IMG/VR virus record: IMGVR_UViG_3300021403_000540
Source: a virus
DNA length: 17,444 bases
Reading direction: 5' to 3' (one strand)
Made by a program: the position numbers and the translations under genes. Of this stretch, positions 7,169-13,303 are shown piece after piece; positions within the stretch are counted from its first letter, which is position 1; each line of letters opens with the position of its first letter. Below the pieces are notes generated by a model, which had not been told where the DNA came from, searched no databases, and worked only from the letters and a program-made list of their open reading frames with translations.

Positions 7169-7896
7169 GTGACGAGCGGGGGAGTAACGAGAGTGATCTG
7201 GCGGTCGGCGGTGACGAAGGCGAGAGTCCGTTGAGTCATGACACCGGGATCACCATCCACATCGAGGTCCCAAGCGCGTTGGAAGGCCATGACAGCTTCT
7301 CGGCAGAGCTGACTCGATAGGTTCCCATCGACCTCGCCGCCGTAGAACTTCAGTTGTGCCAGGTAGCTCTGAATCTGGACTGGCGACATGTTGAAGTCGG
7401 TCCCGTACCTCTCCATGATCCGTGCCTCTACGGCGCTTGCCCACGTGACCGGCTTGTTGATGTCGCAGTACTGGAGGTACTTCTGCGGATCGGTTCCGAG
7501 ATAGTTGAAGTGCCACGCCTCAGACTCATCCGGCCCCAAACCATCTCGTCGATGACAGAACCAGTTGTGGGCTTTCATGACCTCGACGATGTCACCGTAG
7601 TGGATCTTATACAGCTTCATGATGCCGTAGAGATCGAGATCGACGGCGAGGCCGTACCCATGTGGGCTGTACCCCGGTCTCTGCACGCCACGTTTCACTC
7701 GCCGTGCAGCGAGAGACGCGTCAGCTGACCGCCACATGTCCGTGTAGACATAGCCGCCGGTCGCTTTGTCGAGCACGAGAAGCTGTGGCCCGACGTCGGG
7801 GGCGAGGTACCGCATGCGGCGCGGCACTTGCCCCTTGTAGTCGGCGTCGTCCGGGCCCTTTATAGTCGCAGGCATCTCAACCAACTTGAGAATCAC
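7165..7896 (-). CDS. Endolysin: peptidase M15 (LAS-type zinc D,D-/L-Ala-D-Glu peptidase) with a C-terminal peptidoglycan-binding domain.
   Basis: YSPHGYGLAVDL matches the S-x-H-x-x-G-x-A-x-D motif, and EAWHFNY supplies the second zinc-ligand His of the VanY/M15 family. The C-terminal GGEVDGNLSSQLCREAVMAFQRAWDLDVDGDPGVMTQRTL has the look of PG_binding_1 (DG..G..T..A...FQ...L..DG). The start is GTG at 7896 with GGAGG 5 nt upstream. Confidence 0.85.
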   Translation of the reverse strand: MILKLVEMPATIKGPDDADYKGQVPRRMRYLAPDVGPQLLVLDKATGGYVYTDMWRSADASLAARRVKRGVQRPGYSPHGYGLAVDLDLYGIMKLYKIHYGDIVEVMKAHNWFCHRRDGLGPDESEAWHFNYLGTDPQKYLQYCDINKPVTWASAVEARIMERYGTDFNMSPVQIQSYLAQLKFYGGEVDGNLSSQLCREAVMAFQRAWDLDVDGDPGVMTQRTLAFVTADRQITLVTPPLVT

Positions 7897-9526: not shown

Positions 9527-9961
9527 TTAGGCAGCTGGCTTGAGGGGCGCGGAGTCAGGAACATTGATACGCTCGAGCTTGAGATCGTGGACCTTCGCTT
9601 CGATCTTGGTGGATAGGTTCTTGTCAGCATCTTCCCAGCCGAGGACCTTCTTCAGCTCTTCGATGCCCTTCTCACCGTAGTGGGACTTCACAGAATCGAT
9701 GGCCGATGTCTTCGCTTCTGCTAAAACTTGGTTCATGTTGTCGCCTGGTTTGAGCGAGCCAATGACACGCTGTTGCGCATCCTTCACCGCATCTTCGCTC
9801 ACTTGATCCAAGCGATCGAGCGCGCCCAGGACCTTCGTGTTTGTCGTCTTACTCTTCAAGTATGTGATCGCGTACCCGATCAGAGCGCACAGGAGCCCTC
9901 CGAGCACCGCCACGAGAGTCGGGAGCAACTGCACTACACCTTGTTCGAGAGCCTGTCTCAT
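9527..9961 (-). CDS. N-terminally membrane-anchored helical protein (i-spanin-like or holin-like).
   Basis: The 144-aa ORF has one hydrophobic helix (LLPTLVAVLGGLLCALIGYAITYL), then a charged and predicted-helical region. GGAGG lies 5 nt upstream of the ATG at 9961. It sits directly upstream of a lipoprotein gene, which is the i-/o-spanin arrangement. Confidence 0.55.
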   Translation of the reverse strand: MRQALEQGVVQLLPTLVAVLGGLLCALIGYAITYLKSKTTNTKVLGALDRLDQVSEDAVKDAQQRVIGSLKPGDNMNQVLAEAKTSAIDSVKSHYGEKGIEELKKVLGWEDADKNLSTKIEAKVHDLKLERINVPDSAPLKPAA

Positions 9962-11633: not shown

Positions 11634-11849
11634 CTACCAGGGCCAGAGCCCCATTCGTTTGAGCCACGTCCCGAATCTATTGCCTGGATTCCTACTGCCA
11701 ACTTCGAAGCCGAGGATGTAGAAGCCCCAGCGGCCAGGAATGATGCCTTCCTTGTTCTTGAAGATCCCGATTCTCCTATCACCAAAATTTGACGAGAGCA
11801 TCCAACGCCAGATATGCGGCGGAGATATGCTGATGATTCCTATTTTCAT
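11634..11849 (-). CDS. Small Trp-rich protein (about 72 aa), hypothetical.
   Basis: An internal ATG at 11849 of the track ORF 11634..12008 gives MKIGIISISPPHIWRWML...WLKRMGLWPW. The upstream part of the track ORF overlaps the tRNA-like element and looks non-coding. The SD (GAGG) is weak. Confidence 0.4.
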   Translation of the reverse strand: MKIGIISISPPHIWRWMLSSNFGDRRIGIFKNKEGIIPGRWGFYILGFEVGSRNPGNRFGTWLKRMGLWPW

Positions 11850-11927
11850 GGGGACCTCAGAGAAGGAAAGGAGGAGACCGCCCGCTGACCATTGCTTACA
11901 GTAACCGGTCGCGGTCTTTGTCCTCGG

Positions 11928-11957
11928 TGGAGGCGAGGGGAGTCGAACCCCTGTCCA
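11928..11957 (-). ncRNA. tRNA 3'-half-like element (T-arm plus 3' acceptor strand and discriminator) with no 5' half. It is either an att-core remnant or part of a tRNA-like ncRNA.
   Basis: The minus strand reads AGGGG-TTCGACT-CCCCT-CGCCTCC-A. That is a 5-bp T-stem, a canonical 7-nt T(psi)CGA loop, a 7-nt acceptor 3' strand and discriminator A. The complementary 5' acceptor strand GGAGGCG (allowing G-U) is absent within about 200 nt upstream, and no D-arm or anticodon arm can be folded. Confidence 0.5.
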
Positions 11958-12260
11958 GTGCGATGCATGCCGACTGAATACTACGAGCGTAGACGATTGC
12001 GTCGTCAACGTGGTTCTTGTGCTACAGCGGATTACAGCTCCGACGGGCTGTCCTCGTTTACGTCACTCTGGTACTGAGGCCCCTTCCAGATGACGGATCA
12101 GGGACGCTTTGGCTCTAGGCCGCTGCGCGCTGGTCGGCGATGACGTTGTAGCTGTTGTCGTTCGCTTTTCTGGTTGGCACGCGTTTTTGACGAGGTCGCG
12201 TTCCCATCCCCGGCTCGCATTCAGTCCTCTGCTTCCACTGTCGAAACCGTTACGCCCCCG

Positions 12261-12331
12261 AGAAAGAAGACAGGGTCCAGACAGAGAGACACTCGAGGAG
12301 GGAGGATGATGGGGTTGTCTGGACCCTGTCT
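12261..12331 (-). terminator. Long perfect hairpin, a terminator candidate for the minus-strand gene 12353..12541 and possibly bidirectional.
   Basis: A 16-bp perfect stem (12268..12283 aagacagggtccagaca paired with 12316..12331) encloses about a 30-nt purine-rich loop (agagacactcgaggagggaggatgatgggg). On the minus strand it is followed by TTCTTTCT (plus strand 12261..12268). It lies 22 nt after the stop at 12353. Confidence 0.4.
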
Positions 12332-12352
12332 GTTGAGCATATAGTCGGATCT

Positions 12353-12541
12353 CTATTTCAGCAAGTGCCAGGCGGCCACCAAACAGGTCAGAGCGAAAAG
12401 AACAGCGAGGACCACGACGATGCGCCCGAATGTAGTCAAGATCCTGGGGCGCGGTCGGGGGGCGATGGGCTTCATGCGAAATACATTCGTGTCGACCTGC
12501 TCATAGTATAGATCGGCATCTTGAGCACTCGCTTGCATCAT
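12353..12541 (-). CDS. Small C-terminally anchored membrane protein (62 aa), hypothetical.
   Basis: AAGGAG lies 3 to 6 nt upstream of tandem ATGs. The C-terminal hydrophobic helix is IVVVLAVLFALTCLVAAW. A hairpin follows the gene. Confidence 0.55.
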   Translation of the reverse strand: MMQASAQDADLYYEQVDTNVFRMKPIAPRPRPRILTTFGRIVVVLAVLFALTCLVAAWHLLK

Positions 12542-12954: not shown

Positions 12955-13296
12955 ATGCCTGTGAAAGACCGCAACCCATTCGGTGAGTCGGAAATTAGCA
13001 AAGCCGACATCGGGGCGAAGAACCCTTTTGACAAGCACGACGCCGTCGTCGAGTGCCCAGTCTGCAATGAGCGTACGCCGGAGAAGATCGGCACGCGCAA
13101 CACGCCGACCCAGATCCTTCGAAGCTGCCGGACCTGCGGAAATGAATGGTCTTGTGGCAATGTCGGCGGGGCAATCATGGTCCCAATCACCAACGAGATG
13201 CTGCGTCCGCCCACAGGTGCCGAGATTGCGGCGGCCGAACCGGATGTCCCAGAAGACTTTCGCCTGAGTGGTACCGAGAGCTGGTTCGACGATTGA
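12955..13296 (+). CDS. Small zinc-ribbon protein (113 aa).
   Basis: The Cys ligands are C34-P-V-C37 ... C58-R-T-C61 (VECPVCNERTPEKIGTRNTPTQILRSCRTCGNEWSC). GAGGAG is 4 to 5 nt upstream of the ATG. Confidence 0.6.
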   Translation: MPVKDRNPFGESEISKADIGAKNPFDKHDAVVECPVCNERTPEKIGTRNTPTQILRSCRTCGNEWSCGNVGGAIMVPITNEMLRPPTGAEIAAAEPDVPEDFRLSGTESWFDD

Positions 13297-13303
13297 GGGG
13301 TCC

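Follow-up and report, generated by a model that had tools for sequence, protein, structure and literature searches.

The window examined here, a 17,444-nt stretch of the IMG/VR virus record IMGVR_UViG_3300021403_000540, is part of a 27,587-bp metagenome contig (ENA ERZ27253555, k141_2132843) that probably derives from a genome of ~200 kb. Pfam and PHROGs searches assigned a gene for a LigD_N (3'-phosphoesterase) domain fused to an ATP-dependent ligase (5735..7168; phage-type ligase PHROG match), a PG_binding/VanY-type endolysin (7165..7896), a holin (9527..9961) and a Cpn10/GroES protein (16193..16564), as well as genes for a RyR-domain protein, a papain-like peptidase, a SpoU methylase and a receiver-only response regulator. 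The other ORFs of the window are mostly without a family, as are most of the remaining genes of the source contig in the recorded Pfam annotation. No SmpB domain is among the records of the 27.6-kb contig and no integrase domain is among its Pfam records; structural genes and housekeeping genes were not seen in it. Judged by the IMG/VR classification and the gene content, the window looks like part of a jumbo phage genome.

A 915-aa MVP_shoulder protein (PF11978, E 2.5e-27) is encoded on the minus strand at 2525..5272. It has no PHROG family match. Related proteins are encoded by two IMG/VR phage contigs of ~205-210 kb (63 % and 35-39 % identity) and, at ~35 % identity, by the 462-kb/735-kb 'uncultured phage' genomes LR756500, LR756501 and LR756503. 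Around the MVP-like gene lies a cluster of nucleic-acid repair/modification type (1175..7168), which includes genes for a metallophosphoesterase, the SpoU methylase, a 140-aa protein with a weak match to tRNA-ligase CPD (2H-type) and the LigD-PE-ligase. Past the low-coordinate end of the window, the metallophosphoesterase gene of the source contig is followed (14465..17945 in the numbering of that contig) by genes for ThyX (PF02511), a weakly matched Fic-domain protein and a 690-aa orphan. The ORF at 13268..14245 encodes 325 aa when read from a GTG start and 313 aa in the version of the gene caller; the longer form found no match among exact proteins or viral contigs, and its GTG start is probably too far upstream.

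Relatives of the window were reached via the MVP-like protein, and these are IMG/VR contigs of 210,330 bp (IMGVR_UViG_3300005535_000017, L002/L188) and 205,564 bp (L003, more distant). Collinearity with the 210-kb contig extends over essentially the whole window, at 39-85 % amino-acid identity (tblastn), and the repair-type cluster is conserved in this contig (L002). The endolysin query matched the end of the 210-kb contig opposite to that matched by the MVP-like protein and ligase. As these genes are adjacent in the window, the genome is circularly permuted, and the 210-kb contig is probably a complete jumbo phage genome.

Between the start codon (ATG) of a 71-aa ORF at 11849, on the minus strand, and the stop codon of a 62-aa ORF at 12353 lies an island (11850..12352) that an earlier, sequence-only reading had described as non-coding. 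The gene calls of the source contig likewise place no gene there, and the mechanically listed ORFs overlapping the island are extensions or antisense frames. On the sequence evidence set out below, the island very probably carries an ssrA gene for a one-piece tmRNA, complete and putatively functional, from a lineage of jumbo phages with genomes of roughly 200 kb. The tmRNA, or transfer-messenger RNA, is a ribosome-rescue RNA and a classic tRNA mimic. Rfam model RF00023 matched 335 nt of the minus strand (11925..12259) with 113.7 bits (gathering score 47; E about 1e-44 to 3e-44), and the alignment covers positions 1-374 of the 374 in the model and is not truncated. ARAGORN called a single RNA gene, a minus-strand tmRNA (11926..12259) whose tag peptide is ANDNSYNVIADQRAAA*, and neither ARAGORN nor Rfam called a tRNA anywhere in the window. 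The model for permuted (two-piece) tmRNA, RF04321, reached 24.8 and 18 bits, below its gathering score of 47, and the order of the domains is standard.

The feature that had first drawn attention to the island was the minus-strand run AGGGG-TTCGACT-CCCCT-CGCCTCC-A, taken to be the 3' half of a tRNA that cannot be completed. The run itself is present and consists of the T-arm AGGGG/TTCGACT/CCCCT (11936..11952 in the Rfam structure line), the 3' acceptor strand CGCCTCC (11929..11935) and the discriminator A (11928), followed by an encoded CC (11926..11927), as read from the sequence and the Rfam alignment; the minus-strand sequence around this 3' module is ...GGACAGGGGTTCGACTCCCCTCGCCTCCACCG. 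The earlier statement that no complementary 5' strand exists within 200 nt is literally true. The partner, GGGGGCG, is found at 12253..12259 on the minus strand, forms 7 of 7 pairs with CGCCTCC, and is separated by 294 nt (counted from its last base) from the T-arm. The 5' strand had been missed because the tRNA-like domain is split by these 294 nt, which comprise the mRNA-like and pseudoknot domains. Hence, the claim that the module cannot be completed does not survive, as both Rfam and ARAGORN complete it as the tRNA-like domain of a tmRNA. The covariance search for a full canonical tRNA, which had been named as a possible refutation, returned no tRNA; the expectation behind it was borne out in spirit, in that a complete structured RNA was found.

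The acceptor stem comprises 7 bp, and its third pair is G:U (G3:U70). A G3:U pair is the identity element for alanine, recognised by alanyl-tRNA synthetase (AlaRS), in both tmRNA and tRNA-Ala. The 3' end reads ACC-G, with G at base 11925; the last A of CCA is thus missing from the gene, and CCA addition is needed. The full CCA is encoded in L188 and not in L003. An encoded CCA is not a strict requirement of the family, and many tmRNA and tRNA genes depend on CCA addition.

The palindromes CTACGAGCGTAG (11981..11992) and GATGCATGC (11962..11970) noted in the sequence-only reading were found at these positions, and both are pieces of the 3' strand of helix 2 (11962..11992, minus strand). In helix 2, GCUCG pairs with 5' CGAGC and CACUG with 5' CAGUG, and CUACGCUCGUAG is aligned with the conserved GACUAAGCAUGUAG motif in the Rfam alignment. 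Pseudoknot PK1 (12176..12212, minus strand), placed by Rfam with high posterior probability, lies upstream of the resume codon and is formed by the stems CGGGG/CCUCG and GGAACGCG/CGCGUGCC, the first of which was read by hand from the sequence. In the PK2-PK4 region, which falls short of the Rfam consensus in length, the alignment includes deletions and its posterior probability is low; plausible helices can be seen there by eye, pseudoknots being structures that RNAalifold cannot model. The tag frame (12115..12165, minus strand), located by ARAGORN and with its translation verified by hand, opens with a GCG resume codon, runs for 16 codons encoding ANDNSYNVIADQRAAA and closes with a TAG stop codon, and corresponds to positions 95-145 of the gene in the ARAGORN call.

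The sequence-only reading had offered a second interpretation, in which the module belongs to a tRNA-mimicking non-coding RNA, with Y-RNA and vault RNA as candidates. The first part of this stood, as a tmRNA was found. The candidates did not, since Rfam, searched permissively over 11700..12500 (E <= 1), returned models of the tmRNA clan alone, and no Y_RNA, YrlA or vault. The idea that the MVP-like and RNA-repair genes nearby have in this RNA a partner resembling Y-RNA or vault RNA draws on the location of the MVP_shoulder protein and RNA-repair-type domains 6-10 kb away, and on the L003 tmRNA, which is ~1 kb from the MVP-like gene. However, no Y_RNA or vault family matched even at E <= 1, and a tmRNA accounts fully for the RNA. 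Furthermore, the MVP-like genes of two huge phages, LR756500 and LR756501, had neither a tmRNA nor any other Rfam RNA within 17-20 kb. The proposed association of the MVP-like gene with an RNA is therefore not general, as it does not extend to these distant huge phages, and a vault- or Y-RNA-like partner is given almost no credence.

A tmRNA gene was also found in both relatives. The L188 gene (5606..5966; 125.2 bits; tag ANDNVRVQSNLSAPLQAAA*) occupies the same slot as that of the window, flanked by the orthologue of the 62-aa ORF on one side and by the response regulator gene on the other. The L003 gene (8679..9044; 74 bits; tag ADADVIPFPKMAVPSLQRAA*) is located ~1 kb upstream of the MVP-like gene with a tRNA-Pro alongside. 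In scans of viral and metagenome sequences, a clade-specific tmRNA pattern returned the 210-kb contig again and L193, a near-identical strain of L188 from a second metagenome with the same tag, and nothing else. The tmRNA genes of the window and L188 are about 74 % identical. When the tmRNAs of the window, L188 and L003 were compared using RNAalifold, double-sided changes were seen in 25 of 65 predicted pairs, including acceptor pairs 5 and 6 (pair 6 being C:G in the window and U:A in L188), two T-stem pairs, several pairs of helix 2 and a PK1 stem. The second stem of PK1 shows double-sided changes in both L188 and L003. The G3:U pair is invariant across the three tmRNAs. This covariation rests on three sequences and is supportive rather than statistical. 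In each of the three tmRNAs, the tag frame is open and its peptide ends in Ala-Ala. Together with the changes that keep pairs intact, the open frames point to purifying selection acting on a working tmRNA, and not to a relic.

The tags of the three clade members end in QRAAA (the window), LQAAA and LQRAA. Among 100 bacterial tags sampled, 66 ended in LAA, 16 in YAA, 2 in AAA (both LAAA) and none in RAA. As the bacterial sample is mostly LAA or YAA and includes no RAA, the clade tags are unusual at the antepenultimate position, and the tag of the window is without the usual hydrophobic residue there. The terminal Ala-Ala-COO- has been reported to be the most important determinant for ClpXP (PMC7652416). 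Given that all three tags retain Ala-Ala, they remain plausible degrons. For the mycobacteriophage DS6A, a tmRNA form without a CDS has been reported as an inhibitor of the host tmRNA (PMC11915505), and with this precedent the gene of the window might be a decaying or decoy tmRNA, either non-functional or acting against the tmRNA of the host. The poorly modelled PK2-PK4 region and the atypical antepenultimate residue would fit such a role. However, the tag frame and its Ala-Ala end are intact in 3 of 3 clade members, compensatory changes run through the tRNA-like domain, helix 2 and PK1, and G3:U does not vary; a decaying or decoy RNA is accordingly regarded as improbable.

A further possibility raised by the sequence-only reading was an attP-type core. 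On this view, the site at which the phage integrates would be the 3' end of a tRNA or tmRNA gene taken from its host. Genes for tmRNA are well-known integration sites (PMC11915505), and the 26-nt 3' core of the window is also found at contig ends elsewhere in IMG/VR (L007 and L010). In tmRNA and tRNA 3'-end att cores, the core sequence, from the T-arm through the 3' end, is identical to that of the window. However, an att element consists of a 3' fragment alone, has an adjacent integrase and is duplicated at the other junction, and none of these three features holds here. The whole gene is present, including the 5' half, tag frame and pseudoknot; the core is found once in the window (0 copies expected from 200 shuffles), with no second copy in the window or in the 27.6-kb contig; and no integrase domain is among the source-contig records. 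The gene moreover lies in the same internal slot of the circularly permuted 210-kb phage genome. With a complete gene, a single core copy and no integrase recorded on the contig, the attP reading is dropped as extremely unlikely.

The tmRNA is universal in bacteria, and modules of its tRNA-like domain are common to many bacterial phyla, so it was also considered whether the window might be bacterial chromosome and the gene the ssrA of the host itself, possibly beside an integrated island. None of 185,579 representative genomes of bacteria and archaea contained the exact 24-mer of the 5' end. A relaxed 5' pattern was found in >120 genomes (Acidobacteriota, Myxococcota, other delta-proteobacteria, Clostridia and others), and none of 120 bacterial tmRNAs with the relaxed motif showed full-length similarity to the tmRNA of the window. 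Similarity to the sampled bacterial tmRNAs is confined to the tRNA-like domain, helix 2 and PK1, at 62-79 % identity. With no close full-length relative among the sampled bacterial tmRNAs, the host cannot be deduced from the tmRNA. Against a chromosomal origin also stand the collinearity of both flanks with a 210-kb viral contig whose ends join, the presence of a holin and an endolysin, the lack of housekeeping genes and smpB on the 27.6-kb contig, and the number of ORFs, the majority, that have no Pfam match. That the gene is the ssrA of a bacterial host is thus very improbable.

Outside the tmRNA gene, the island consists of a leader of 93 nt and a trailer of 75 nt. In the leader, a hairpin with a perfect 16-bp stem (12268..12331, minus strand) stops 8 nt short of the mature 5' end and has a minimum free energy of -31.3 kcal/mol (z = -5.4; none of 200 shuffles folded equally well). 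At the corresponding place in L188 (~5540..5595), a 16-bp hairpin of different sequence is present. The hairpin may belong to the leader of the precursor, act as terminator for the ORF upstream of it or bind a protein. The trailer, which extends from the 3' end of the tmRNA to the next ORF (11850..11924, minus strand), comprises a weak hairpin, no better than shuffled sequences (z = -0.54), and a pyrimidine-rich tail. A terminator scan of the tmRNA strand made no call. Similarly, in a scan for sigma-70-type promoters upstream of the tmRNA at the three loci, none passed; putative elements below the scan rule can be seen by eye, namely TTGCTG-17-TATGCT in the window, TTGCTG-17-TATCTT in L188 and TTGACA-17-TATATA in L003.

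The receiver-only response regulator gene (115 aa, PF00072; 11277..11624, minus strand) lies downstream of the tmRNA, in the same orientation, in both the window and L188. In L188 (6013..6348) it starts ~45 nt after the tmRNA, and in the window the 71-aa ORF lies between the two. A search of the viral contigs with the response regulator found just an unrelated match of 32 % in L187.

The exact 26-nt 3' core is found in 61 IMG/VR contigs, many of which encode a complete tmRNA, either in one piece or permuted, whose tag is very different. At the DNA level, the tmRNA of the window did not match these viral copies beyond the last ~33 nt. When the island was compared with GenBank phages by blastn, the 30-nt 3' core alone was matched, twice inside annotated SsrA genes, and there is therefore no close cultured relative. 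SsrA is also annotated in the crAss-like phages cr7_1 and cr124_1.

Other tmRNAs were encountered among the core-bearing contigs. In L012 (6818..7268) and L043 (3223..3673), as well as in L025, L039 and L059, all phage tRNA-array contigs, a 451-nt tmRNA recognised by Rfam with 114.8 bits ends 12 nt upstream of a tRNA-Ala(UGC), and was not called by ARAGORN. As these tmRNAs are found by Rfam and missed by ARAGORN, surveys that use ARAGORN alone may undercount phage tmRNAs. In the small IMG/VR contigs L007 (1..73) and L010, a tmRNA is cut by the contig end. L010 also carries a second 23-nt copy of the core ~5 kb away (75..97 and 5110..5140), an attL/attR-type pattern, as for an element integrated into ssrA.

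The role proposed for the tmRNA of the window is inferred from the established trans-translation pathway. The 5' end of the precursor would be trimmed just after the leader hairpin, presumably by RNase P, the 3' end would be trimmed too, and a CCA-adding enzyme would supply the terminal A. The AlaRS of the host would then charge the tRNA-like domain with alanine via G3:U70. Together with SmpB, presumably that of the host, the charged tmRNA would enter the A site of ribosomes that have stalled, with this site empty, on mRNAs that are truncated or lack a stop codon. Translation would resume at GCG, adding (A)ANDNSYNVIADQRAAA, that is AANDNSYNVIADQRAAA, to the product. The stop codon would free the ribosome, and the Ala-Ala-COOH end would mark the product for proteolysis of the ClpXP type. 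The benefit to the phage would presumably be that ribosomes are kept available in infection, when mRNA damage is likely. Ribosome availability has been proposed as a benefit for other phages (PMC7162821, PMC9004378).

A broader hypothesis is that the clade keeps its lineage-specific tmRNA within a translation-repair and counter-defence module, in which it would rescue ribosomes stalled by RNase-based abortive-infection systems of the host, with the fate of the tagged proteins possibly altered. The module would comprise the tmRNA together with the MVP-like protein, SpoU methylase, CPD/2H-like phosphoesterase and LigD-PE-ligase, inherited together, and the traits of the tmRNA relevant to it would be the tags ending in (Q/R)AA(A), without a hydrophobic antepenultimate residue, and the structurally conserved 5' leader hairpin. 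This hypothesis is considered unlikely.

Phage tmRNAs are already documented, having been detected in 402 of 18,146 phage genomes (2.3 %; PMC9004378) and in huge phages (PMC7162821). The gene described here is a fairly divergent further example that standard tools detect. What had appeared to be an enigmatic half of a tRNA is a standard tmRNA gene, found by any covariance or ARAGORN scan, and as such should not be pursued as a new class of RNA or an att site. With three distinct sequences and unusual tags that nevertheless end in Ala-Ala, a divergent, vertically inherited tmRNA lineage joins the translation genes of jumbo phages, which fits the idea of large phages reinforcing ribosome rescue in infection. 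Three curiosities remain: the leader hairpin conserved in structure, the tag residues that are atypical at the antepenultimate position, and the inheritance of the tmRNA together with MVP-like and RNA-repair genes in the clade.

Like bacterial SsrA (RF00023), the predicted RNA has ends that close a tRNA-like domain with G3:U70, a T-arm, helix 2 and PK1, an alanine resume codon and a short tag ending in Ala-Ala followed by a stop codon. It differs from bacterial SsrA in being carried by a phage-like genome, in a tag that ends in QRAAA rather than LAA, YAA or VAA, in its shorter pseudoknot region and in the unencoded terminal A. With other phage tmRNAs it shares a complete gene in a large phage genome with no integrase adjacent, and an identical 26-nt 3' core. 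Unlike them, it belongs to a separate lineage, is in one piece and not in the permuted form common in marine phages, and has a leader hairpin specific to the clade in place of a riboswitch.
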